A stretch of DNA of 46,856 nucleotides, taken from the sequence record PZ379178.1. The stretch is one strand, 5' to 3'. The stretch comes from a phage. The notes below the pieces were generated by a model, which saw only the letters and a program-made list of their open reading frames with translations, ran no database searches and was not told the DNA's origin. Shown piece by piece: positions 391 to 46,856 of this stretch. The position numbers and the translations under genes were made by a program. How positions within the stretch are numbered: the stretch's first letter is position 1; each line of letters opens with the position of its first letter.

Positions 391-1073
391 GCGTACTTCT
401 TAAGAACCCTTTCGATTTCTATTTGGATTACAGAACGGGCCATCATAATTCAACCGTCAACCCATCAATGGAGGTTGATGACTTTTTACATCAAAACATT
501 CTTGCGGCAATGGCTGGTGATGGTTGCTTGATTAAAAATACAGAAAAAGGAACGCATAGGCTATCTTGGAATATGGGAAATAAGGAGCACGCACTAAGCA
601 AGGTTGAAAGGTTTGCAAAACTAAACCCTAGATACAGGGAGAAGAAAAACCCTGGATTTGGCGACAACTGGTTTTGCGTATCAACATCATGTACGAAAGT
701 TCTGGATTCATATGCTGATAAGTACGGAAATTCTAAGGATGGTTACGATATTGGAAAGATATGCAGAGAGCTTAATCCAGTTGGTTGGGCTGCTTACTTT
801 GGTGATGATGGTCATTGCACTGTAAGCTCAGGGAAGAGGGTTGTAGAAATCCACACCGAATCATTTAGCAGGCGTGAAGTTCAATCAGTAGTTGATGCGC
901 TAATAGCATTTATTGCTAATGACGGAGTTAAGGTTAGAAGCTATATTGGCGGCAAGAAAAAGAGAGAGCTTTACTCAGTATCAATAACAACGAGGTCGGC
1001 ACAAGATGAGTTTTTTAAGAGAATTAGTAAGCACATGGAAAATGGCGTGGAATACAAAATCAAGCAAAATTAA
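366..1073 (+). CDS. LAGLIDADG-family homing endonuclease, free-standing ORF between intein halves
   Basis: Frame-0 ORF 219..1073 with two LAGLIDADG-like motifs (LAAMAGDGCL and AAYFGDDGHC); start 366 is first ATG with GGTGA-like SD, 219 is an alternative; overlaps both intein-half ORFs in a different frame. Confidence 0.55.
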   Translation: MPHSSKGLGVLLKNPFDFYLDYRTGHHNSTVNPSMEVDDFLHQNILAAMAGDGCLIKNTEKGTHRLSWNMGNKEHALSKVERFAKLNPRYREKKNPGFGDNWFCVSTSCTKVLDSYADKYGNSKDGYDIGKICRELNPVGWAAYFGDDGHCTVSSGKRVVEIHTESFSRREVQSVVDALIAFIANDGVKVRSYIGGKKKRELYSVSITTRSAQDEFFKRISKHMENGVEYKIKQN

Positions 1074-2716: not shown

Positions 2717-3136
2717 ATGAAAATCACAGACAAAGGTGATTACCTCGAGTTCTATGGCGGACCGGTGAAGTCATGCCCAAAGGAAGACGATGAACAAATC
2801 TTCTGCTCTGATTGGGTGAAATACAACTATCCGCAGATTGTTTACTGGCACACGATTAACGAAAATAAAAAGAGCATTGGTCAAGCAAGAAAAGACCAAG
2901 CCAAGGGGCTTCTCAAAGGTGTGTCAGACTGCTTATTTCTGATACCTGAGTCATTGCGTGGCGGTTATCCATTTGGCGCCATAGAGTTAAAGAGGGCTGG
3001 TAAAACGCAAGCAAGCCCAGTTAGCAATGAGCAAAAGTCATTCCTAAAAAGCGTAAGTGAATCAGGCGGTTTCGCAGCGGTGGCTTATGGAAGAGAGGGT
3101 TTTCTTGCGGCATTCGCAGAGATGATAAGAAAATAG
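2717..3136 (+). CDS. VRR-NUC-like PD-(D/E)XK nuclease
   Basis: 139 aa; GVSDCLFLIP ... FGAIELKRAGKTQ matches D...E-x-K nuclease core of VRR-NUC proteins; immediately follows helicase. Confidence 0.55.
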   Translation: MKITDKGDYLEFYGGPVKSCPKEDDEQIFCSDWVKYNYPQIVYWHTINENKKSIGQARKDQAKGLLKGVSDCLFLIPESLRGGYPFGAIELKRAGKTQASPVSNEQKSFLKSVSESGGFAAVAYGREGFLAAFAEMIRK

Positions 3137-3185
3137 CACGAATTGCTAAAGACGAATTGGTGAGTTGGTGTATTATCAACTCATC
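3134..3185 (+). promoter_or_regulatory. Box-hairpin-leader cassette (candidate phage promoter)
   Basis: Box TAGCACGAATTGCTAAA 3134-3150, hairpin GAGTTG/CAACTC, TATTAT 3171-3176, leader CATCGAAACG from 3182; ATG 3215. Confidence 0.5.
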
Positions 3186-3214
3186 GAAACGAAACACACA
3201 AAGAGAGAAAGAAA

Positions 3215-4002: not shown

Positions 4003-4254
4003 ATGTTTGGATTAGATTTCCAGCCAAAGCATTATGATTTAGTGCATGGTAGTAGCGGAGCCAGGTTTAGAGCGATACCTATTGATGACTGGTTTCCACC
4101 TGACTATGTGGATGTTAACGCGAAGACGAAGGACGGTAAATGGGTACAGATTTACTACTCTCCAGCGTGCGGTAATCTGTGCATGACAGACATGGACCAA
4201 AAATTAGCAATTAGTGCTGATTTGTTGGATTTCTGGTTAAAAGAGGTTGAATGA
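4003..4254 (+). CDS. Hypothetical protein
   Basis: 83-aa ORF, 2 nt after previous stop. Confidence 0.5.
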   Translation: MFGLDFQPKHYDLVHGSSGARFRAIPIDDWFPPDYVDVNAKTKDGKWVQIYYSPACGNLCMTDMDQKLAISADLLDFWLKEVE

Positions 4255-6021: not shown

Positions 6022-6576
6022 ATGAAAAAGTTAATCATCCTTAATGCACCCCCTGGTGCTGGAAAAGATACAGTTGCAGATATCATTGTTAATCTTGGAA
6101 TTTGCAAGGATAAGGTTTCATTCAAGTCACCAATGTTTAATGTTGCAAAAGGAATACTATCAAGCGATGAGTTTGATGAATTTATTAAGAATTACGATGA
6201 CCGAGAGTACAAAGAATCACCACATGAATTTCTTGGTGGAATGACGGTTCGTGAATTTATGATTTGGATTAGTGAGTCAGTTATGAAGCCAGTCTTTGGT
6301 GATGATGTTTTCGGTAAAAGGCTAGCGCAATCACTTGGTGATGGTTGCTATATCTGTGCTGATGGTGGCTTCGCTAGCGAGATTAATACTCTCATTGATT
6401 CAGGGGTTGAAGTTACTTTGATTAGACTTTTTAGGCCTGGCTATACTTTTGATGGAGATAGCCGCTCCTACATTCGCGGTGTCTGCGCAAGAGAAATTGA
6501 CGTTCATGTTGTAGATGGTGATATTGATGGAACCTCTGCTTTGGTAATGCACGTAATAAATAGCACGAATTGCTAA
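6022..6576 (+). CDS. P-loop kinase, dNMP-kinase-like
   Basis: N-terminal LNAPPGAGKDT P-loop and RPG motif as in phage deoxynucleoside-monophosphate kinases; start 6022 is ATG 1 nt after upstream stop (ORF track opens at 5974 in same frame); ends INSTNC* inside promoter box. Confidence 0.55.
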   Translation: MKKLIILNAPPGAGKDTVADIIVNLGICKDKVSFKSPMFNVAKGILSSDEFDEFIKNYDDREYKESPHEFLGGMTVREFMIWISESVMKPVFGDDVFGKRLAQSLGDGCYICADGGFASEINTLIDSGVEVTLIRLFRPGYTFDGDSRSYIRGVCAREIDVHVVDGDIDGTSALVMHVINSTNC

Positions 6577-6612
6577 ACAATCGCCGGAGTAATCCGGCAT
6601 AATTACTACATC
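6561..6612 (+). promoter_or_regulatory. Box-hairpin-leader cassette
   Basis: Box TAGCACGAATTGCTAAA 6561-6577, hairpin CCGGA/TCCGG, CATAAT 6598-6603 (22-nt gap from TTGCTA), leader CATCGAAAAC from 6609; ATG 6635. Confidence 0.5.
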
Positions 6613-6634
6613 GAAAACAACAGAGGATTCAAAA

Positions 6635-6808
6635 ATGACTAAATTATACTGCGTTAAAAACAACTCAAAGACACTGCCGTTCACCGAAAACCAGCCGTAC
6701 AGCGCAGAGTCTCTAGGTGACGGTTACTACAAAGTTTACGGTGACGATATGACTCACATCCTTGCGCCGATTGATGGCTCTTTGGTGGAATTTATTATCG
6801 CAGATTAA
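6635..6808 (+). CDS. Hypothetical small protein (57 aa)
   Basis: ATG 74 nt downstream of promoter box 6561 with AGAGGA SD; followed by terminator hairpin. Confidence 0.35.
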   Translation: MTKLYCVKNNSKTLPFTENQPYSAESLGDGYYKVYGDDMTHILAPIDGSLVEFIIAD

Positions 6809-8370: not shown

Positions 8371-9954
8371 TTACCCCAGCAATCGTGGATTAATGTAAAT
8401 TTTATCACCAATCAGGCATGTGTAGTTTTTCTCATCAAGCATAGGAATCAAGTGGTCCTTAATGCGAGTCATAATTCCAGCCTGAGCTTCAAAAGGTTTA
8501 ACCTTGCGTGCAGCCTCATACAACGAGCGAACACCAACAACACCTTTACCATTCTTGCCTTGCTTAATCAGGATATCAACCAGCTTGTTCATCTCGGCAT
8601 TGTCACCAGCATGACCAGCAGCACTAGCGGATGATAAATAAGTCTTGCTTAGTTCGTTGAAAATCATAACCGCTTCCTGCATTGTATCCAGTTCAATCTC
8701 TCTTGACTTTTGAGGGCTGGATCCGGCTGGTGAGAACCAGTTACGAATTACGTGCAGAACAGAAGCGATGCGGATTGCTTGCTTATCAAACTTACCAAGA
8801 GCACCGCGCAACATTGTGTGAGAATACTTGCCACCATCACCAAGATGAGGCTCCATCTCTTGACGAGCGCGGTTAAGGTAACGCATTGATGACGCGCTTA
8901 CAGTAAGTTTCGCTTCAACTTCATTCATAATCTCATGAACAAGACGGAAATAGTCTGCTTTCAGGCCGCCATCAATAGCCTCATAGGTTGAATCACCATT
9001 CTCATCAACAAATACGCGCTCACCAAGAAATGACTTCTCACGCACCAGAAGGAAGCGCTCAGATACACCGATACCACGCGCACCGGCATTCATAATGGCG
9101 TTAATTGTTTCATCCTGCGCAATTACAGAGATACAACCCATAGCCACGAAACTCATGTTGTTTTCTGCATTCGCGCGCGCAATAGATACATTACCCGCAT
9201 CCCACGCCTTAAGCACAAGTTCGCTGTTCGTTTTCTTCGAGCCATCACCGTAAGTCATGCCTAACAGTGAGTTGACGCTAGTAGCCTCATCAGAGATTAC
9301 CGCAAAATTACCCTGGCGATTGTTGATTCGCGCAAGACCTTCCGGTGTAGTATCGGAGACAGGGAATACTATATCGCATAGCTTCTCGAGCTTCTCCTCT
9401 AAATCCTCCTTCTCCTCAAAAAGTGAAGCCATTTCAGAAGGTGATTTCTCCTGCTTCATCTCTTTAGCCAGAGCGGACAGTTTAGCCATAATCTTTTTTC
9501 GATCACGTTTACGTACTTCATTCAACCGCTCAGTCTCAGCAATCATCGGCGCAATTGATAGCGAGTTAATGGCTGATTTACCAGTTGAAGGCGGCTGACT
9601 TGTTACCACGTACAAAGATGTTGGCTGTTGGGTTCCATGATACTCGACAGTAAAACGCCCAAGCATTGCAGCAGAAACACAACCAAGAAAGTGCATGTAA
9701 GCTGACGACTCAGGGAACTGAACCGAGCGAGCGATATTAGCCGATAGCTTACCAACAACATCAATATCATTACCGAGTGAGATTACTGGATACTTATCAT
9801 TACCTGTATCAATCTCGACAGGTGCTTTCCAGAACGATTGAGACTGTCGATAGCCATTGGCATTAATAGCCACGCGAAGCGGTGGTAGGTTGTCATTGGC
9901 AGCGATTGCCATAACCTGCTCAACAGATAGTTTATCTTCGTTGAAATCAAACAT
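8371..9954 (-). CDS. P-loop NTPase-like protein of unknown function
   Basis: 527 aa; Walker A-like PPSTGKS and Walker B-like FAVISDEA; promoter box cassette immediately upstream (10011-10026, minus orientation). Confidence 0.5.
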   Translation of the reverse strand: MFDFNEDKLSVEQVMAIAANDNLPPLRVAINANGYRQSQSFWKAPVEIDTGNDKYPVISLGNDIDVVGKLSANIARSVQFPESSAYMHFLGCVSAAMLGRFTVEYHGTQQPTSLYVVTSQPPSTGKSAINSLSIAPMIAETERLNEVRKRDRKKIMAKLSALAKEMKQEKSPSEMASLFEEKEDLEEKLEKLCDIVFPVSDTTPEGLARINNRQGNFAVISDEATSVNSLLGMTYGDGSKKTNSELVLKAWDAGNVSIARANAENNMSFVAMGCISVIAQDETINAIMNAGARGIGVSERFLLVREKSFLGERVFVDENGDSTYEAIDGGLKADYFRLVHEIMNEVEAKLTVSASSMRYLNRARQEMEPHLGDGGKYSHTMLRGALGKFDKQAIRIASVLHVIRNWFSPAGSSPQKSREIELDTMQEAVMIFNELSKTYLSSASAAGHAGDNAEMNKLVDILIKQGKNGKGVVGVRSLYEAARKVKPFEAQAGIMTRIKDHLIPMLDEKNYTCLIGDKIYINPRLLG

Positions 9955-10029
9955 TACTTCTCTCCGTGTTGTTCTGAGCGGCCATTATATCAATAGCCGC
10001 TTATAATGCATTATCAATTAGTGCTATTT
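9955..10029 (-). promoter_or_regulatory. Box-hairpin-leader cassette (minus orientation)
   Basis: Reverse-complement box TAGCACTAATTGATAA (plus coords 10011-10026), hairpin GCGGCT.../...GGCCGC, TATAAT, leader ACGGAGAGAAG; precedes ATG 9954. Confidence 0.5.
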
Positions 10030-10731: not shown

Positions 10732-10806
10732 GATCTCTTGCTCTCTTTCGTTTCGATGGAGTAAATATACGCCATCCGTGGCGGTGAGTTTTAGCAATTA
10801 GTGCTA
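10732..10806 (-). promoter_or_regulatory. Box-hairpin-leader cassette (minus orientation)
   Basis: Reverse-complement box TAGCACTAATTGCTAAA (10790-10806), hairpin CGCCACGGATGGCG, leader CATCGAAACGAAAGAGAG; precedes ATG 10731. Confidence 0.5.
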
Positions 10807-10955
10807 TTTTTTCTGGCCTTCTCAATTGCCTTCAACATAATCTCGTGAGACTCAAGCAGGTCCTCGTTAAACCAGTCCCCGCAAGGCCAACCCTTTCCGC
10901 TGTAAGCACTAATTATTTCCAGATCGAAATAGTTTATCTCAGATGGTAAAAGCAT
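10791..10955 (-). CDS. Hypothetical small protein (54 aa)
   Basis: Start overlaps upstream stop (TAATG); ends KNSTNC* inside promoter box 10790-10806. Confidence 0.3.
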   Translation of the reverse strand: MLLPSEINYFDLEIISAYSGKGWPCGDWFNEDLLESHEIMLKAIEKARKNSTNC

Positions 10956-11355: not shown

Positions 11356-11426
11356 ATCTCTCTCCTCGTTGTTGATGGATTCATTATGGTATCGTCGCCA
11401 GTTTTTGTCATTAGCAAAAAGTGCTA
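11356..11426 (-). promoter_or_regulatory. Box-hairpin-leader cassette (minus orientation)
   Basis: Reverse-complement box TAGCACTTTTTGCTAA (11411-11426), CATAAT, leader CATCAACAACGAGGAGAGAG; precedes ATG 11355. Confidence 0.5.
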
Positions 11427-11440
11427 TTCGTTGGATTTAT

Positions 11441-11548: not shown

Positions 11549-11705
11549 GGGGTGAATGAATGGTGGATGAACTACCATACAAGTTGATTTTGATTCTTGC
11601 TGAGCCAATTTGGATATACACGTTATCGAAGTTATGGTGTGTATATGAGGTGCGCTTCCGAAGAATCATACACGCCTACCACGCTAGATTACGCAATGGT
11701 TACAT

Positions 11706-11762
11706 AATAATATCTATATATATCAACCTTTTACTATATTATTATTATTATTATATATATGT
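11706..11762. repeat. AT-rich (TTA)n element, copy A
   Basis: TAATATCTATATATATCAACCTTTTACT-ATATTATTATTATTATTATATATAT; near-identical copy at 39501-39556. Confidence 0.8.
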
Positions 11763-12027
11763 ATGTATATGGTGTAGATTGGTCGTATGGATGGGTCGAT
11801 AGTTTTTCTATGAAAACTACTAATTTTATCTATATAGATACATATGCATATCCCCGGCGAATCCGCGTAAAATCTTACACAGGGTAATTACACCAGCTAT
11901 AGCTGGGCTGAGAGGTCAAAAAGCGTAACCAATGCAGATATAAACACAACATAACACTTGATAACGCGTATATTCATGATACCATGGTTTCATCTTAACG
12001 AAGAGCAACCAATCAGGAGTAACGAAT

Positions 12028-12549: not shown

Positions 12550-12657
12550 TGGGTATGGTAGTCTACTACCATACCATCCGCGGTACAGTGAGGATGAGGA
12601 TGAGGTTGAGGTGGCTATGGATTTATATCGGAAAGCTAAATTACTACTGAATGGAAA

Positions 12658-12737
12658 TAGCACTTTTTGCCTAACGCAATAATGCCATGGATGGCATAAT
12701 TATCTCATCGAAACGAGAGGCACAAAGGAAAACGAAA
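12658..12737 (+). promoter_or_regulatory. Box-hairpin-leader cassette, variant box
   Basis: Box TAGCACTTTTTGCCTAA 12658-12674, hairpin GCCAT/ATGGC, CATAAT 12695-12700, leader CATCGAAACGAGAGG from 12706. Confidence 0.5.
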
Positions 12738-13167: not shown

Positions 13168-13168
13168 A

Positions 13169-13243
13169 TAGCACGAATTGCTAAACCTTCCGCAAGGCCA
13201 TTTGATATAGTGGCCTTATTGAAGCAAAGCAAAAGAGGATGTG
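13169..13243 (+). promoter_or_regulatory. Box-hairpin cassette
   Basis: Box TAGCACGAATTGCTAAA 13169-13185, hairpin AAGGCCA.../...TGGCCTT, TATAGT; leader diverged (AAGAGGA SD). Confidence 0.45.
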
Positions 13244-13704: not shown

Positions 13705-13851
13705 TTTTATATATCCATGAGTACTGGACTGGGAAGTTTAACACCGTTCGACATGTTAGAGTTTATGAAGATTATGTGAGTGCTTTCAATCAACAGAAGG
13801 TACTTGGTGGCACTGTCAAGGTTTGCGATGTTATAGATGAGATTTACTAAA

Positions 13852-13925
13852 TAGCATGAATTGCTAAACAATTGCCGGAGAAATCCGGCATAATTACCAC
13901 ATCGACAACGAGATGGAGTATAGAT
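13852..13925 (+). promoter_or_regulatory. Box-hairpin-leader cassette
   Basis: Box TAGCATGAATTGCTAAA 13852-13868, hairpin GCCGGA/TCCGGC, CATAAT, leader CATCGACAACGAGATGG from 13900; near-duplicate of cassette 6561. Confidence 0.5.
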
Positions 13926-15072: not shown

Positions 15073-15212
15073 TGGATAACTACGAAACACCAAGCCAGTG
15101 GGCTAAACGGATGATGGATGAGGCTAAGACTGGCGAGGTTGCCATGATGTACTTCGAGCTGATGAATCTATGGAAGGAGCGTGAAGATAAAATAAACAGC
15201 ACGAATAGCTAA
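15072..15212 (+). CDS. Hypothetical small protein (46 aa)
   Basis: TAATG overlap with upstream gene; ends INSTNS* inside promoter box 15197. Confidence 0.3.
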   Translation: MDNYETPSQWAKRMMDEAKTGEVAMMYFELMNLWKEREDKINSTNS

Positions 15213-15268
15213 ACACCAAAGGCATGGATGCCATATAATTTATATATCAAACAGCGAGAGGTTAGAAA
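15197..15268 (+). promoter_or_regulatory. Box-hairpin-leader cassette
   Basis: Box CAGCACGAATAGCTAAA 15197-15213, hairpin GGCAT/ATGCC, TATAAT, leader TCAAACAGCGAGAGG. Confidence 0.5.
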
Positions 15269-17281: not shown

Positions 17282-18901
17282 ATGCTTCACAACTGGATTC
17301 TTAATTGGCGTGATGGTTGGATTGGTGAAATTATGGCTAATTTAGTTTGGGAGGAAATGACGCCAGCAGAAAAGATGGCGGTTAAGGCGATATCCACTCA
17401 TAGCTTCGAGGGTTTCTTACGAGTGTGGTTCCAGCTTACCCAGGGAGAGCGATACATACCTAACTGGCACCATAGATACCTTTGCAGAATTATCGATGAG
17501 ATTATTGCTGGTGAGCGTAAGGACACAATCATTAACATCGCTCCTGGCAGTGGGAAGACAGAGATTGCCTCAATTCACTTCCCAGCCTACTCAATGGTTA
17601 AGTTGAGAAAGGTAAGGAACCTGAATATATCGTATGCTGACTCACTGGTTAAGCGTAACTCCAAGCGTGTGCGCGACTTAATTAAGTCTGTTGAGTTCCA
17701 GGAGTTGTTCCCATGTAAGTTTGGTACGTGTAAGGATGATGAGCTACAGGTCCTGGATGACTATGGCAAGGTCAGGTTTGAGTCAATCTCTAAAGCCACT
17801 GGCGGCCAAATTACAGGCGCGAGGGGTGGATATATAACCGATTCGTATAGTGGTGCGGTACTGTTAGATGATTTTGACAAACCAGCCGACATGCTTTCTG
17901 CTGTTTTTCGCGCTAACAATCACGTGATGCTAAAGAATACAATACGCTCTCGTAGGGCGAGCTCCGTAAAAGGAAAGGCGACGCCGATTATCTCTATCCA
18001 ACAGCGCCTTCATGTGAACGATAGTACGTGGTTCATGATGAATGGCGGTATGGGTATTAGCTTCGACTTGATTAAAATACCGGCGCTCGTAACTGAGGAT
18101 TACGTCGACACGCTTCCTGACTGGATTAAGCAGCAATTCATTGATGACGTTCTATCAAGCGAATATATTGAGCGTGATGGTGTTAGGTACTATAGCTATT
18201 TCCCTGGCAAGGAATCTGTTCACGACCTAGTTGCAATGTGGGATTCTGATAGCTATACATTCCTTAGCCAGTATCAGCAAGAACCAGTAGCACTTGGCGG
18301 CAACCTGATTAACGTAGACTGGCTTCAACGCATTAGCGACACTCTGCGACCGCCAGCTAAGTACGATTACAGGTTTATGGTCCTTGATACTGCGATGACA
18401 ACCAAAAGTTACAGCGACTTTAGCGTCATGCAGCTATGGGGTTATAAGGATGGGAAGATTTATCTGCTTGACCAGCGGCGCGGTAAATTTGAAGCTCCTG
18501 AGCTCGAGGCTGAGTTATTGGATTTCGAGAAGATGGCTAGGGCATCCAATCAGATAGATGGCATCCTTCGTAAAATCATCATCGAGAAGAAAGCCTCTGG
18601 TATTGGCCTGATTCAATCAGCCGGAAGGGTTATGCGAACGCCTATCGAGCCGTACGTTCCGGATAACGATAAGCTGACTCGCGTAATGAGTGCATTGCCG
18701 CAGATTAAAGCTGGTAACGTAATCCTTCCGGAGTCTGCTACTTGGCTTAATGGCTTGCTAACGGAGATTGCGGCATTCACGGCAGATGATTCACATGTTC
18801 ACGATGACCAGATAGACTGTTTGACAATGGCTGTCAACCTGGTACTGAACATTGCAGAAGACCCTAAATCGAGGATGATGCGCCTCGCTGGCATCAAATA
18901 G
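17282..18901 (+). CDS. Terminase large subunit
   Basis: 539 aa; Walker A NIAPGSGKTE near N-terminus, acidic nuclease-type C-terminal half; position before portal; alternative start ATG 17336. Confidence 0.8.
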   Translation: MLHNWILNWRDGWIGEIMANLVWEEMTPAEKMAVKAISTHSFEGFLRVWFQLTQGERYIPNWHHRYLCRIIDEIIAGERKDTIINIAPGSGKTEIASIHFPAYSMVKLRKVRNLNISYADSLVKRNSKRVRDLIKSVEFQELFPCKFGTCKDDELQVLDDYGKVRFESISKATGGQITGARGGYITDSYSGAVLLDDFDKPADMLSAVFRANNHVMLKNTIRSRRASSVKGKATPIISIQQRLHVNDSTWFMMNGGMGISFDLIKIPALVTEDYVDTLPDWIKQQFIDDVLSSEYIERDGVRYYSYFPGKESVHDLVAMWDSDSYTFLSQYQQEPVALGGNLINVDWLQRISDTLRPPAKYDYRFMVLDTAMTTKSYSDFSVMQLWGYKDGKIYLLDQRRGKFEAPELEAELLDFEKMARASNQIDGILRKIIIEKKASGIGLIQSAGRVMRTPIEPYVPDNDKLTRVMSALPQIKAGNVILPESATWLNGLLTEIAAFTADDSHVHDDQIDCLTMAVNLVLNIAEDPKSRMMRLAGIK

Positions 18902-18970
18902 CACGTTTTGCTAAAGACGCGCCGCCAAGGATGGCTTATAGTTACTTCACGCAAACGAGAGGAGTAAAAA
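18899..18970 (+). promoter_or_regulatory. Box-hairpin-leader cassette
   Basis: Box TAGCACGTTTTGCTAAA 18899-18915, hairpin GCCA/TGGC, TTATAG, leader CACGCAAACGAGAGGAG; drives moron 18971. Confidence 0.5.
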
Positions 18971-27290: not shown

Positions 27291-27297
27291 AAATTAA

Positions 27298-27317
27298 CCC
27301 TCTTCGGAGGGTTTTTT
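27298..27317 (+). terminator. Rho-independent terminator after major tail gene
   Basis: CCCTC-TTCG-GAGGG followed by T6. Confidence 0.65.
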
Positions 27318-27322
27318 ATTGA

Positions 27323-27398
27323 TAGCACTTTTTGTTAAAGGCTAAGTCGCGGATTGCTGTATAGTTCATTCATCGAAAAGAAATGAGAGATTAATGAA
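27323..27398 (+). promoter_or_regulatory. Box-hairpin-leader cassette, variant box
   Basis: Box TAGCACTTTTTGTTAAA 27323-27339, TATAGT, leader CATCGAAAAGAAATGAGAG from 27371; drives moron 27399. Confidence 0.5.
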
Positions 27399-38538: not shown

Positions 38539-38622
38539 TTTAGTATTCCCTAGAATGTGTGTTTCGTTTCAATGGAGTAATGATATCTCATCATTGAGAT
38601 TTGTCTTTAGCTATTCGTGCTA
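38539..38622 (-). promoter_or_regulatory. Box-hairpin-leader cassette (minus orientation)
   Basis: Reverse-complement box TAGCACGAATAGCTAAA (38606-38622), hairpin, leader CATTGAAACGAAACACAC; precedes lipoprotein gene ATG 38538. Confidence 0.5.
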
Positions 38623-39291
38623 TTTACTTTCCAGTAACAGCTTAATGTCGATACCAAGTTTATTCTCGATCAATCCGGTCAGTGCGTCCGTCTTTTCTTT
38701 AAGAGCAAAGCATTGCGTTTCATACTTAAACCTTGCTTCCATTTCATCGGAACGTGATGCCCAAGACTGCCGAGCCTCGCAAGCAAGCATATCTAGTTTT
38801 TCATCTGTATTCTTATCCATGAGAAGGATTTCATTGATTCGCTGCTCAGCAACGATTCGCTGACTAAGGTGAGCGTTCTGCGCATTAGCCACACCAAGCA
38901 TCATGCGTGCCTCTTTTAGCTCATCAATACTAACCATCTTGCTGATTACTTCCTGTTGAGTGTTAATGGTTTGCTGCATCTCTTTTAGCTTGTTTAGAAC
39001 CGAACGACGAACAGACTTTGACTCACGCATTCCGACAAGAAGCATTTGCTCCATATTAAGCACTGGTGAGTTGATCGACTTTCTATAACCACCTCTTCCC
39101 TCACTTTTGATTACGAAACTTTCGTAGTCAAACTCAAACCCCTCAATCTCATCCTCTATCCTCTCAACAAAGTCATTGTGTCGAACATCAGATTCACCAG
39201 CAACTAACCTCGCTGGGTTGATAACTTCATTCAAAAACTGATAACTGTTCATTTTCACATCTTCATTTAGTAGAGCTAGGTTCATTTTCAT
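38620..39291 (-). CDS. Rha-like phage regulatory protein (putative)
   Basis: N-terminal SYQFLNEVINPARLVAGESDVRHNDFVERI resembles Rha-family N-domain, coiled-coil C-terminus; start 39291 after AGAGAG SD. Confidence 0.4.
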   Translation of the reverse strand: MKMNLALLNEDVKMNSYQFLNEVINPARLVAGESDVRHNDFVERIEDEIEGFEFDYESFVIKSEGRGGYRKSINSPVLNMEQMLLVGMRESKSVRRSVLNKLKEMQQTINTQQEVISKMVSIDELKEARMMLGVANAQNAHLSQRIVAEQRINEILLMDKNTDEKLDMLACEARQSWASRSDEMEARFKYETQCFALKEKTDALTGLIENKLGIDIKLLLESK

Positions 39292-39380
39292 CTCTCTTTT
39301 TTTATTCTGGCTAAGCACCATTGCCGCCATGCGCACAAATATACCCAAATACTGCATCTTGTCTTTAGCAAATCGTGCTA
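39292..39380 (-). promoter_or_regulatory. Box cassette (minus orientation)
   Basis: Reverse-complement box TAGCACGATTTGCTAAA (39364-39380), TATATT, AAAAAAAGAGAG SD; precedes Rha-like gene. Confidence 0.45.
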
Positions 39381-39500
39381 TTTATCGCAAATTTACCCAT
39401 AAATCATGGTTACGCGTAATCGATGTAACTCGATGTATACCATATGCATCCGCGGGAAATCGTATACGCCTAGTTACGCCAGTTTACGCCATAGTTACAC

Positions 39501-39556
39501 TATAATATCTATATATATCAACCTTTTACTCTTATTATTATTATTATATATATTAC
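39501..39556. repeat. AT-rich (TTA)n element, copy B
   Basis: TAATATCTATATATATCAACCTTTTACT-CTTATTATTATTATTATATATAT; 28-nt core identical to 11708-11735. Confidence 0.8.
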
Positions 39557-40069: not shown

Positions 40070-41041
40070 ATGACATTTAAAGTTTATACGAACGACGAGC
40101 TAACCAATGAAGCCTATCACGAAGAGAAAGACCATATCTCTGGCTCTTCGCTGGCTGAGATTCTTGCTACTTCTCCAGCAAAATGGAAATTTAAGCAGCG
40201 CAGCAACTCAAGTGCAGCACTAAAGTTTGGCACTTTGAGCCATACGATGATGCTAGAACGTGAAGTGTTCGATTCCACTTACATGCGAGCTACTGACTTT
40301 GACGAAGTGGAAGGATTGATTACTAGCCAAACAGCTTTATCGGCAGCGCTTAAAAAAGTTGGCGTTTCCGGCACGTCAGGGAAGGGTTATAACGAGCTTG
40401 TGGAGATGATGTATAAGTCTGGCGAGGATTGGCCGGTTAAATGGTTAATTGAGCAGCAGGAGAGCGCTGAGGCGTTAATTAGTGGCAAGGAGCTGGTTAG
40501 TGCTAAAGATTACGACAAGGTAATCGCAATGCGAGAAGTTCTGACCAATATTCCGGCTTACGATGCGGTAATTAATTCACCAACAGCACAGAAAGAGCTG
40601 TCAATCTTTGGTGAGATTCTCGGCTGCGGCGTTAAGGTTCGGCTTGACCACGTGGATGTTGTTAATGGAGTGGTTTACATTACTGACTATAAAACAACAG
40701 CAGACGCAAGCCCGAGAGGATTTGGTAAGTCAGCTTATGACCATGGTTACCTGTGTAAGATGGCACTTCAGCGCGATTTGTTTGTTAAAGCATTCAACGA
40801 AAAGCGTAAGGTTGTGGTTCGACTTCTGGCTCAGGAGAAAACAGAGCCCTACTTACCTATGTGCTACACACTTACAGATGAGCAGCTTCGCATTGGGCGC
40901 TTACAATATTTAGAGGCTCTGGCTGTTTACAAGCAGTGCAAGGAACTTGATGATTGGCCTGGATACAGTAATGGGATTACAGAGCAAGATTTGATGATTC
41001 CTGAGTGGGTAAATAAGCAGTATCAAGAATTACTAAAATAG
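40070..41041 (+). CDS. PD-(D/E)XK-type exonuclease (putative recombination exonuclease)
   Basis: VRLDHVDV ... VYITDYKTT matches D...D/E-x-K nuclease core; directly upstream of annealase and SSB. Confidence 0.5.
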   Translation: MTFKVYTNDELTNEAYHEEKDHISGSSLAEILATSPAKWKFKQRSNSSAALKFGTLSHTMMLEREVFDSTYMRATDFDEVEGLITSQTALSAALKKVGVSGTSGKGYNELVEMMYKSGEDWPVKWLIEQQESAEALISGKELVSAKDYDKVIAMREVLTNIPAYDAVINSPTAQKELSIFGEILGCGVKVRLDHVDVVNGVVYITDYKTTADASPRGFGKSAYDHGYLCKMALQRDLFVKAFNEKRKVVVRLLAQEKTEPYLPMCYTLTDEQLRIGRLQYLEALAVYKQCKELDDWPGYSNGITEQDLMIPEWVNKQYQELLK

Positions 41042-41111
41042 CACGAATTGCTAAAGACAAAATTAACTGGTGGGGTATCATTACCCCATCGAAACGAAAG
41101 AGAGATGTGGA
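41039..41111 (+). promoter_or_regulatory. Box-hairpin-leader cassette
   Basis: Box TAGCACGAATTGCTAAA 41039-41055, hairpin GGGGTA/TACCCC, leader CATCGAAACGAAAGAGAG from 41087. Confidence 0.5.
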
Positions 41112-44778: not shown

Positions 44779-44802
44779 TGTGTAAAGTCTCCATTTGTAA
44801 AG

Positions 44803-44819
44803 TAGCACTAATTGCTAAA
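44803..44819. promoter_or_regulatory. Isolated box copy TAGCACTAATTGCTAAA with ambiguous orientation
   Basis: Box overlaps tail fiber 5-prime region (start 44778, minus) and lies beside primase terminator hairpin 44853-44866; no downstream leader on plus strand. Confidence 0.35.
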
Positions 44820-44843
44820 GTGGATTGTATCATCTTTCAGGTA

Positions 44844-44866
44844 TAAAAAAACCTCCCGAAGGAGGT
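44844..44866 (-). terminator. Rho-independent terminator after primase gene (minus strand)
   Basis: CCTCC-CGAA-GGAGG with A7 on plus strand (T-run on minus). Confidence 0.55.
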
Positions 44867-45792: not shown

Positions 45793-45860
45793 AGTTACCT
45801 CCATAAACAATAAAGGCACTATACACAATGTATAGCGCCACTGTTTATCAATTCGTGCTA
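45793..45860 (-). promoter_or_regulatory. Box-hairpin-leader cassette (minus orientation)
   Basis: Reverse-complement box TAGCACGAATTGATAAA (45844-45860), palindrome CTATACATTGTGTATAG, GGAGG SD; precedes primase ATG 45792. Confidence 0.5.
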
Positions 45861-46340
45861 TTTCCCTTGCTCTTTATCTTTTCGTGCTGCTTCGTTAGCG
45901 GCCTTAATCTTGCGCCATGAGCGACACTCTGGTTTAGTTGCTAGCTCAGCCTCAGTAACAACACGCAGCATATGACGCTTCTTGCAACGTAGAGTTAGCG
46001 GTTTCCCGTTACCGTCGAATTGCAGATCTGGTCGGCAGAATGTAGCGCGAAAACCTTCTCCATTTCGCTTATAGTAGTTGTGCGACAACTGAGCGCCACG
46101 CGCAGAAATCATCCCGCGATCAAACCATTGCTCTACAGTCTGGTGAGATACATTTAACTGCTTGGCGATATTGGCCTTCGTGCCGTAGAAATCAAGAACC
46201 ATCTCCAGACGAGCTCGTAGCCCAGCCTTTACTTCATCTTTCAATACGTAGTAGCCTGACGGTCGTTTGCGCTGTTTCTTGTCTTGCGTGCGGATGGTTC
46301 CGTTATTGCCGTTGATAGTTCGCTTGTCAATTTCACACAT
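45858..46340 (-). CDS. HTH-type DNA-binding protein (putative regulator)
   Basis: 160 aa, basic; TKANIAKQLNVSHQTVEQW resembles helix-turn-helix. Confidence 0.45.
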   Translation of the reverse strand: MCEIDKRTINGNNGTIRTQDKKQRKRPSGYYVLKDEVKAGLRARLEMVLDFYGTKANIAKQLNVSHQTVEQWFDRGMISARGAQLSHNYYKRNGEGFRATFCRPDLQFDGNGKPLTLRCKKRHMLRVVTEAELATKPECRSWRKIKAANEAARKDKEQGK

Positions 46341-46363
46341 CTCATTACCTCAATAGCACTTTT

Positions 46364-46436
46364 TGTTAAACAATAGGTTCGATAATTGCTATTATACAGC
46401 AATGCAACGAACTAACAAACTGTAAGGGTATTTAAA
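46364..46436 (+). promoter_or_regulatory. Box cassette, variant box
   Basis: Box TAGCACTTTTTGTTAAA 46364-46380, TATTAT, leader CAATGCAACGAAC; precedes helicase ATG 46437. Confidence 0.45.
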
Positions 46437-46856
46437 ATGCTTCCAGTAGAGCGCTTAGTGGCGAACTTTGATAAAGAGAAAATTAAACAGATTCAGAAAG
46501 ATTACCAGTTTGGAGACATAACGCCTTACGAATTCCAGTGCGTGACATTTGACGCAATCGGTAAGGCTATTGGCAAGTACGAAGCGCCATTCATCGCAGA
46601 CCTGTCGGTGTCTGCTGGTAAGACAATTATACTCGCCATGATTGGGAAACGAATGGAACAGCTTGGCCTTCCTTACATGGTCCTATCTCGCCAGTCAGAG
46701 ATTATCAGCCAGAACGCAGAGGAACTTCGTAATTTCGGCATCCGTAATAGCGTCTATTGCGCTGGCCTTAACGTTAAATCAGTTTACTACCCAACCATAG
46801 TGGCTAGCGAGGGTACGGCTGCCAACGGCTTATTTAAGGGGCTTGGTGACTATGTT
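46437..46856 (+). CDS. Helicase N-fragment, 5-prime part (runs off window end, continues at nt 1)
   Basis: ATG 46437 is 73 nt downstream of promoter box 46364; Walker A SVSAGKT; 140 complete codons to window end, in frame with nt 1 ORF. Confidence 0.6.
   Translation, partial: MLPVERLVANFDKEKIKQIQKDYQFGDITPYEFQCVTFDAIGKAIGKYEAPFIADLSVSAGKTIILAMIGKRMEQLGLPYMVLSRQSEIISQNAEELRNFGIRNSVYCAGLNVKSVYYPTIVASEGTAANGLFKGLGDYV

Follow-up and report, generated by a model that had tools for sequence, protein, structure and literature searches.

The elements studied here have a described counterpart in a repeat of T1-like phages. When phage TLS was re-annotated in 2024, a direct repeat of 21 nt (aaATAGCACnnnTTGnTAAAA) was reported in 21 copies, of which 18 are intergenic; it points in the direction of transcription, lies about 76 nt ahead of start codons and was also found in T1, Rtp and Rogue1 (PMC11447400). 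Only three ordinary sigma70 promoters were found in TLS, and its authors suggested that the repeats are stoperators, enhancer sites or UP elements and treated their function as an open question (PMC11447400). On the host side, the published soxbox/marbox consensus of Escherichia coli is AYNGCACNNWNNRYYAAAYN (PMC2064960), and a later definition of the marbox reads gcannwwntgnnaaa (PMC12052159). Rob, MarA, SoxS and RamA all recognise this site, and enterobacterial hosts have such proteins (PMC12052159). At the class II promoters of these activators, a forward marbox overlaps the -35 position and is clustered near -41, the -10 element is canonical and a -35 element is not recognisable (PMC10268841, PMC8811837).

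The window analysed here, i.e., the whole stretch of 46,856 nt in record PZ379178.1, was identified by megablast as a T1-like siphophage (Drexlerviridae, Braunvirinae). The closest records were Escherichia phages ES and AN_ECEAS, which are about 94% identical to it over 71% of its first 20 kb; TR2, Rtp-like phages and many Klebsiella phages come next. A helicase ORF starting at 46437 exits the window at its end and resumes in frame at base 1, indicating that the window is a complete, circularly permuted genome. The term "genome-wide", which the preliminary description had applied to a repeated cassette in this DNA, is therefore literally true. In total, we found 19 strong cassettes, each consisting of a box TAGCAC-N3-TTGCTAAA, a TATAAT-like hexamer, a CATCGAAACGA leader, a Shine-Dalgarno sequence and a start codon. 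The box together with its flanks reads ATAGCACGAATTGCTAAAC. The cassettes and the features next to them are as follows, beginning with the focal cassette.

6022..6576: gene upstream of the focal cassette, whose TAA stop codon (6574-6576) lies within the focal box
6560..6579, + strand: focal box ATAGCACGAATTGCTAAACA, 20 bp, marbox-like, agreeing with 14/14 specified consensus positions
6583..6598, + strand: focal hairpin GCCGGA-gtaa-TCCGGC with a GNRA loop, occupying the 18-bp spacer between box and -10
6598..6603, + strand: focal -10 hexamer CATAAT, 18 bp past the 20-bp box
6610..6634, + strand: focal leader of 25 nt with the Shine-Dalgarno sequence AGAGGA, followed by ATG at 6635; the transcript start, A6610 of CATCGAAAAC, is predicted from the position of the -10
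903..1005, + strand: cassette within a LAGLIDADG ORF, preceding the C-terminal half of a fractured helicase gene; this half comprises an intein C-part and Helicase_C
3133..3214, + strand: cassette in which the stem TGAGTTG/CAACTCA encloses the -10 TATTAT and 2717..3136 ends with the box TAG as its stop codon
5473..5546, + strand: cassette with the variant TAGCACTTTTTGTTAAT and a weak -10 CAAAAT, preceding a polynucleotide kinase/phosphatase-like gene
9955..10027, - strand: cassette preceding the DUF3987 gene (8371..9954), with the stem AGCGGC/GCCGCT enclosing the -10 TATAAT
10732..10807, - strand: cassette in which the hairpin CGCCA-cgga-TGGCG abuts the -10 TATATT
11356..11427, - strand: cassette with 19-bp spacing and without a strong hairpin
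12657..12737, + strand: cassette with the TTGCCTAA variant and the hairpin ATGCCA-tgga-TGGCAT
13168..13240, + strand: cassette with a 14/14 marbox match, in which the stem AAGGCCA/TGGCCTT encloses the -10 TATAGT
13851..13925, + strand: cassette, near-identical paralogue of the focal one
15196..15268, + strand: cassette with ACAGCACGAATAGCTAAACA, a 14/14 match, and the -10 TATAAT
18898..18970, + strand: cassette in which the large terminase gene ends, its stop codon being the box TAG
27322..27398, + strand: cassette in the late region that follows directly on a canonical terminator (27296-27313 and a T run) and has no more than a weak internal hairpin
38539..38623, - strand: cassette preceding a lipoprotein (Cor-like) gene
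39286..39381, - strand: cassette in a divergent intergenic region, without an upstream gene and without a hairpin
41038..41111, + strand: cassette preceding the ERF recombinase gene, with the stem TGGGGTA/TACCCCA including the -10 and a degenerate second box 18 bp upstream (41021)
44802..44860, + strand: orphan cassette with 20-bp spacing, without a same-strand downstream ORF and running antisense into the primase gene
45793..45861, - strand: cassette preceding the primase gene, with a weak second box at 45871-45890 and a hairpin (11 pairs) whose T-rich tail makes it score as an intrinsic terminator of the upstream regulator gene
45858..46340, - strand: gene for a conserved Cro-like HTH regulator, homologue of T1 gp23 and Rtp52
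46353..46436, + strand: cassette preceding the helicase gene, with a 14/14 match and 17-bp spacing, whose -10 region is shared, back-to-back, with a boxless sigma70-like promoter of the regulator gene

All 18 copies listed in the preliminary description exist, and most of their coordinates were right, but 46364 is 46354, 10011 is 10010 and 11411 is 11410. A further good copy, absent from that list, lies at 904(+), weaker box copies occur at 45889(-) and 41021(+), and one copy within an ORF, at 4219(-), is probably due to chance. The box had been titled TAGCAC-N4; this spacing gave 0 matches, and the correct one is N3. At no more than three mismatches, TAGCAC-N3-TTGCTAAA matched the genome 23 times, compared to 6.06 +/- 2.36 times in dinucleotide shuffles, and none of 100 shuffles reached 23. 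Similarly, a position weight matrix at a threshold of at least 12 bits detected 21 sites in the genome and 0 in a shuffle. The box is thus enriched in the genome.

The arrangement within the cassettes was largely constant. In 14 of the 19 copies the hexamer begins 37 nt past the box start, i.e., 22 nt past TTGCTA, and in the other five it begins 21 to 24 nt past TTGCTA, where about 21 to 23 nt had been estimated before. Measured from the 20-bp box, the gap to the -10 is 18 bp, the exceptions including 11356(-) with 19, 44802(+) with 20 and 46353(+) with 17. The constancy of the 22-nt gap supports the earlier view that TTGCTA is not a -35 element. Moreover, the best -35-like hexamers are poor, matching TTGACA at only 3 to 4 of 6 positions, and the -35 position itself is poorly conserved. 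The leader, C-ATCGAAAC, begins at offset 48 or 49 from the box start, where 48 had been counted. The start codon mostly lies 71 to 84 nt from the box start, close to the 72 to 81 nt reported previously, but the full range is wider (68 to 102 nt). The box is oriented forward relative to the -10 in 19/19 strong copies, and 18/19 cassettes are co-oriented with the next gene, as would be expected of the promoter modules that had been proposed. The cassettes appear to drive nearly every transcription unit of this virulent phage genome.

A motif search across related phages, also suggested beforehand, yielded 172 cassettes in 11 Drexlerviridae genomes, and the geometry of box and -10 holds across all of them. 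In a set of 144 cassettes from seven Drexlerviridae genomes, a TATAAT match of at least 5/6 is found at offset 37 in 88 cassettes, at offset 38 in 14 and at offset 36 in 5, and almost nowhere else, with A2 and T6 of the hexamer near-invariant. The consensus of the 106 cassettes with an offset-37 hexamer reads aaATAGCACgAATTGcTAAA-N17-g.TATaaT...c.cAtcgAaac.a.a.g. The box itself is the TLS-type repeat, sharing with it the aaATAGCACnnnTTGnTAAAA consensus, the direction of transcription and the distance of about 76 nt to the start codon. The repeat is thus already published, whereas a fixed -10, a hairpin and a marbox identity are not described in the accessible part of the TLS paper (PMC11447400). 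What is new here is the identification of the box with its flanks as a marbox. The preliminary description had missed both this identity and the report of the repeat for TLS, T1 and Rtp (PMC11447400).

The box consensus with its flanks, ATAGCACGAATTGCTAAAC, fits the published AYNGCACNNWNNRYYAAAYN at every specified position and also fits gcannwwntgnnaaa. When the published consensus was used on its own, with no training on phage sequences, 17 sites of at least 13/14 were found in the window compared to 0.77 expected (maximum 3 in 30 resamples), and 4 sites matched at 14/14 compared to 0 expected. At the level of the family, 129 of the 144 cassettes match AYNGCACNNWNNRYYAAAYN at 12/14 or better (14/14 in 25, 13/14 in 73 and 12/14 in 31), and gcannwwntgnnaaa is matched at 10/10 in 91 cassettes and at 9/10 or better in 139. 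The box at 18899, ATAGCACGTTTTGCTAAAGA, shares 16/20 positions with the E. coli mar promoter marbox (ATGCCACGTTTTGCTAAATC), 14 of these identities being consecutive. Conservation along the box is asymmetric and correlates with how the marbox positions are specified (Spearman 0.62, p = 0.011). The same architecture was observed in T1, Rtp, Klebsiella phage GH-K3 and Cronobacter phage CS01. Indeed, GH-K3 (Webervirus) carries 12 consensus matches, 10 of them with a -10 at 18 bp, and CS01 carries 9, of which 8 have a -10 at this distance, compared to 0 to 2 matches in the shuffled GH-K3 and CS01 genomes.

We also compared the geometry with that of a host promoter. In E. coli micF, we measured 18 bp between the marbox ACAGCACTGAATGTCAAAAC and the -10 TAGAAT (marbox at 54-73, -10 at 92-97 and annotated RNA start at 105 of the micF sequence used). 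The phage cassettes have the distance and orientation of micF, which confirms the earlier placement of the box at the position used by class II activators. If transcription starts at the A of CATCGA, the box would span about -50 to -31 and be centred near -41 (about -40.5). As judged from sequence, the box is thus best read as a marbox and the cassettes as a known promoter class in an unexpected place; that they are promoters of the class II type is a conclusion in which we have high confidence. Other identities were rejected. The superficial likeness of TAGCAC-N3-TTGCT to a sigma54 promoter (TGGCAC-N5-TTGCW) does not hold, since the box has AG where the -24/-12 promoter requires an invariant GG, leaves only 8 nt to the GC where 10 are required (2 bp short), gives 0 matches with the N4-spaced pattern and is instead followed by a sigma70-type -10 at fixed distance. 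Among other known motifs, the T4 MotA box lies at the wrong position (-30), Lrp (YAGHAWATTWTDCTR) matches the flanks only, and IHF, Fis, CRP and FNR do not fit.

The hairpin noted in the preliminary description is real. Perfect stems of at least 6 bp occur in 60/144 cassettes compared to 9.45 expected, with a mean MFE z-score of -1.87. Two forms were observed, in which the hairpin either fills the spacer and abuts the -10, as in the focal GCCGGA-gtaa-TCCGGC, or encloses the -10 between its arms. In orthologous cassettes the pairing is kept by compensatory changes; across relatives, the stems of the DUF3987-gene cassette read AGCGGC/GCCGCT, AGAGG/CCTCT, GACGG/CCGTC and ATGCCGC/GCGGCAT. Selection for the hairpin is thus shown, as are the sequence, geometry and conservation of the cassettes, whereas we infer its role. 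In the 11 genomes, the upstream ORF ends at or near the box in 136/172 cassettes, and its stop codon lies within the box in 85/172 (TAG of the box in 58, TAA of the box in 27). With an upstream ORF ending at the box, hairpins are more stable than without one (-10.8 vs -8.5 kcal/mol, p = 0.008). All 8 GNRA tetraloops that were found lie on the sense strand, and the antisense strand has none. The sense strand folds with an energy lower by 0.97 kcal/mol (p = 0.013), but G-U counts are alike on both strands.

T-rich tails give a few hairpins the look of intrinsic terminators, among them that at 45860(-) and two in T1 cassettes that carry this annotation. Behind most stems comes the A/T-mixed -10 region or ATCGAAAC, and the following 8 nt contain 2.7 T on average; lacking a U tract, most hairpins are not canonical terminators. 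If the -10 is real, the hairpin lies outside the transcript of its own cassette and seems to belong to the 3' end of the upstream gene. On our reading, the stem-loop would serve the upstream cistron, in whose RNA it would be an attenuator or a 3' stabiliser; it may also play a part at the DNA level.

These observations suggest a model in which each cassette would be a sigma70 promoter of the class II activator type, with a 20-bp marbox (ATAGCAC-N3-TTGCTAAA-C) in place of the -35 element. From this arrangement we infer which protein binds, that it activates and where transcription begins, the predicted start being the A of CATCGAAACGA. The box would be bound by a monomeric activator of the MarA/SoxS/Rob family, which could be host Rob, constitutively present, MarA or SoxS when induced by stress or, in Klebsiella and related hosts, RamA. 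Through contacts with sigma region 4 and the alpha C-terminal domain, the bound activator would recruit RNA polymerase, as at micF. Since a class II marbox promoter needs no -35 sequence, the 18-bp spacer would be free for a hairpin, so that spacer and -10 region could encode a stem-loop by which the RNA of the upstream gene is partly terminated or is stabilised at its 3' end. With moderate confidence, we favour class II marbox promoters under host MarA, SoxS or Rob as the best explanation of the cassettes, and among the three options offered previously, an activator-dependent promoter is the best one. The option of a modified host RNA polymerase found no sign in its favour, as no sigma, AsiA/MotA-like or AraC-like gene was detected in the phage.

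We searched for the protein that might bind the box. MarA and SoxS used in tblastn and phmmer searches of the six-frame translation revealed no AraC-family protein in the phage (best E = 0.8), and neither HTH_18 nor HTH_AraC was detected by Pfam in 48 non-structural ORFs. Together with the Cro-like fold of the one HTH protein, these searches argue against a phage-encoded MarA-like activator. Because the phage encodes no AraC-family protein, host Rob, MarA or SoxS, or RamA in Klebsiella, would be the likeliest activators. Our search of the literature revealed no paper linking T1-like phages to the marbox, MarA, SoxS or Rob, and for no T1-like phage did the searchable literature yield results on binding, transcript starts or host mutants. 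Ordinary broth without known inducers supports good growth of T1, and the classical mutants resistant to T1 are altered in tonA (fhuA) and tonB, genes for receptor and transport, and are not known to map to rob, marA or soxS. Against a host factor also speaks that Rob is reported to be largely sequestered in the absence of inducers (PMC12052159). In addition, the same boxes are present, with 9 and 16 matches, respectively, in the Drexlerviridae Vc1, recorded on Vibrio cholerae, and Motto, recorded on Pseudomonas aeruginosa, which counts against strict host dependence. Either these hosts have an equivalent factor, or the host labels are wrong, or the factor is encoded by the phage; the labels are doubtful, since both genomes have 45% G+C.

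The main rival candidate for the trans-factor is the Cro-like regulator encoded at 45858..46340(-), whose 160-aa product is the sole recognisable DNA-binding protein of the phage. Its confidently predicted structure (pLDDT 88) is Cro-like with a single HTH and does not have the dual-HTH MarA fold. The box could be the operator of this conserved Cro/cI-like protein (T1 gp23), a possibility that we regard as somewhat unlikely. Bound as a dimer to the partial palindrome TAGCA-N5-TGCTA, whose centre lies at about -42, the regulator would activate transcription in the manner of lambda cI at PRM, and it would also repress its own boxless promoter in the divergent region between regulator and helicase; the likeness to a marbox would then be coincidence or mimicry. 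The modelled Cro-like fold would suit such a role, and the regulator is a core gene, confined to T1-like phages, with an HTH conserved in T1, Rtp and the Klebsiella and Cronobacter phages. Its promoter, TTGTTA-16-TATAAT, looks like an activator-independent sigma70 promoter and overlaps the helicase cassette like a genetic switch. Consistent with this idea, the palindrome is centred at -42, given a transcription start at offset 49, and Vc1 and Motto retain both the boxes and the regulator. However, the box is not conserved as a palindrome: G2 is invariant while its mirror C12 is weakly conserved, and A-1, C5, T9, A15 and A16 are conserved yet break the symmetry. The partial palindrome is largely owed to the GCA...TGC symmetry that is inherent in the marbox, and the box stands strictly in a single orientation relative to the -10. 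Moreover, the probability that a 14/14 match to a 22-bit host consensus would arise by chance, together with the orientation and 18-bp spacing of micF, was estimated at 1e-3 to 1e-5 after allowing for multiple comparisons. As the HTH of the regulator is conserved across the family, the invariance of the box agrees with either binding protein.

Two further explanations dispense with an activator. The cassettes might be activator-independent sigma70 promoters involving no dedicated protein, in which the box is a UP-like element or a weak hexamer, AAGACA/TAAACA, at 16 to 18 bp serves as the -35. Such promoters would agree with the growth of T1 without known inducers, with the MarA-independent basal activity of the class II marbox promoters lpxC, lpxL and rfaY (PMC12052159) and with the UP elements suggested by the TLS authors (PMC11447400), and a consensus scan revealed several cassettes with 4/6 -35-like hexamers at 16 to 18 bp. 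We nevertheless consider this explanation very unlikely, as the box is not an A/T tract as UP elements are, its strongest conservation falls on GCAC and TG..AAA, upstream of any -35 position, and the sequence at the -35 position is poorly conserved. We give still less credit to the notion that box and hairpin act in RNA (3'-UTR, processing or stability) or as repressor or "stoperator" sites, with the hexamer being incidental. The upstream stop codon does lie inside the box in about half of the cassettes, the hairpin correlates with the upstream ORF, the GNRA loops are on the sense strand, two T1 cassette hairpins carry a terminator annotation, and stoperators were proposed for TLS (PMC11447400). 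An RNA signal, however, would not be expected to have a TATAAT hexamer with conserved A2 and T6 at a fixed 18 bp in more than 100 cassettes or a fixed purine start site, and some cassettes exist without an upstream gene (39380 and 46354).

If the cassettes are marbox promoters, the question left open for the TLS-type repeat would be answered, and it would be explained why only three ordinary sigma70 promoters could be predicted in TLS. Host MarA, SoxS or Rob would then probably drive most genes of the phage, and it would be unusual for a lytic phage to depend at most of its promoters on a stress-response activator of its host. The productivity of the phage would be tied to bile, oxidative stress and multidrug-resistance mutations, with a bearing on phage therapy, as many Drexlerviridae are used against E. 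coli and Klebsiella. Only tentatively do we extend this to the Drexlerviridae as a whole, a virulent enterobacterial family in which nearly all transcription units might be wired to the mar/sox/rob stress regulon of the host. In that case, phage expression should increase with bile salts, salicylate, oxidants and marR, soxR or ramR multidrug-resistance mutations, and hundreds of replicating genomes with some 20 consensus marboxes each would, by titration, draw the activators off the defence genes of the host. T1-like phages would then find unusually good hosts in antibiotic-resistant "mar" strains. The packing of a promoter within a terminator, where the activator site contains a stop codon and the spacer a hairpin, would also be an example of genome compaction.

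Among known systems, the PeSL cassettes of T4-type phages are likewise repeated modules of promoter and stem-loop between small genes, and both kinds of cassette are possible substrates for modular shuffling. The cassettes at 6561 and 13852 are paralogous and nearly identical, and some cassettes adjoin genes that differ between relatives. The preliminary comparison with PeSLs as mobile modules is thus a plausible analogy, although PeSLs are composites of an early promoter and a terminator and, to our knowledge, lack an activator box. At lambda cI-activated PRM and in Mu Mor/C activation, the activator site replaces or overlaps the -35 and is centred near -42, as in the cassettes; at the middle promoters of T4, which depend on MotA/AsiA, it also replaces or overlaps the -35, with the MotA box at -30. 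Unlike the cassette boxes, these sites have other sequences and are recognised by phage proteins, and homologues of MotA, AsiA and Mor were not found in the phage genome. With the class II promoters of MarA/SoxS/Rob (RamA), such as micF, lpxC P2, lpxL P1 and rfaY P1, the cassettes have in common the 20-bp asymmetric marbox, which points forward and overlaps the -35 position, as well as a canonical -10, at 18 bp as in micF, and a poor -35 element. They differ from these host promoters in their number, with about 19 near-consensus copies in 47 kb of a virulent phage, and in combining the marbox with a stem-loop in the spacer or -10 region, a conserved leader and a box that doubles as the stop codon of the upstream gene.

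The cassette box can also mark the end of the preceding gene: about half of the cassettes (85/172, counted in 11 genomes) were found to have a box in which translation of the upstream gene stops, either at a TAG at box position +1 or at a TAA at position +14. Examples were observed in the window:

3134-3136, 18899-18901 and 41039-41041: TAG stop codons in the box
6574-6576: TAA stop codon in the box

In the divergent region between the genes for the Cro-like regulator and the helicase (46341-46436), the regulator gene is preceded by a sigma70-like promoter that lacks the box:

46418..46391, minus strand: boxless sigma70-like promoter of the Cro-like regulator gene, TTGTTA-16-TATAAT

The -10 elements of this promoter and of the helicase cassette overlap back-to-back, and the leader of the regulator gene contains the marbox of the helicase cassette. 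The overlapping -10s lie at the centre of a 19-bp palindrome, ATTGCT-ATTATAC-AGCAAT (46384-46402).

The helicase gene itself was found to be fractured into separate ORFs:

46437-46856 joined to 1-390: helicase N-terminal part and intein N-splicing region (AIDEC/LTGDT) in a single ORF
219-1073: LAGLIDADG endonuclease ORF in a different frame
1006-2715: third ORF, with the intein C-splicing region and Helicase_C, and with its own cassette (904)

This arrangement, which among the genomes compared was common only to the window and phage ES, resembles a split intein whose homing endonuclease is free-standing.

One cassette was an orphan:

44802-44860, plus strand: cassette without a same-strand ORF

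Its direction is antisense to the primase gene, into which it points, and it overlaps both the primase terminator and the region where the tail-fibre gene starts on the minus strand. It could produce an antisense RNA, or a factor bound to it could repress the tail-fibre promoter.

The two largest intergenic regions of the window, both divergent, are occupied by the copies of a direct repeat of approximately 100 nt (11664-11765 and 39456-39556; ~90% identical). In each, a long AT-rich run (TATAATATCTATATATATCAACCTTTTAC...TTATTATTATTATTATATATAT) comes after iteron-like TTACGC repeats, and the repeat could represent an origin of replication or a region of early promoters.

The same enterobacterial-style cassettes were also observed in Drexlerviridae records labelled with other hosts:

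MG065688.1: Campylobacter
NC_054898.2: Vibrio cholerae (phage Vc1)
ON843697.1: Pseudomonas aeruginosa (phage Motto)

The G+C content of Vc1 and Motto is ~45%. These labels may reflect wrong host assignments or an unexpectedly wide phage host range.

Second, degenerate boxes accompany two cassettes, perhaps as tandem sites or as duplicates that have decayed:

45871-45890, minus strand: 29 bp upstream of the primase cassette
41020-41039, plus strand: 18 bp upstream of the recombinase cassette

Moreover, the cassettes at 6561-6625 and 13852-13916 are almost identical across ~60 nt, hairpin included, and this sequence similarity suggests a recent duplication or recombination between cassettes. Such behaviour would resemble that of PeSLs, the promoter/stem-loop cassettes of T4-type phages.
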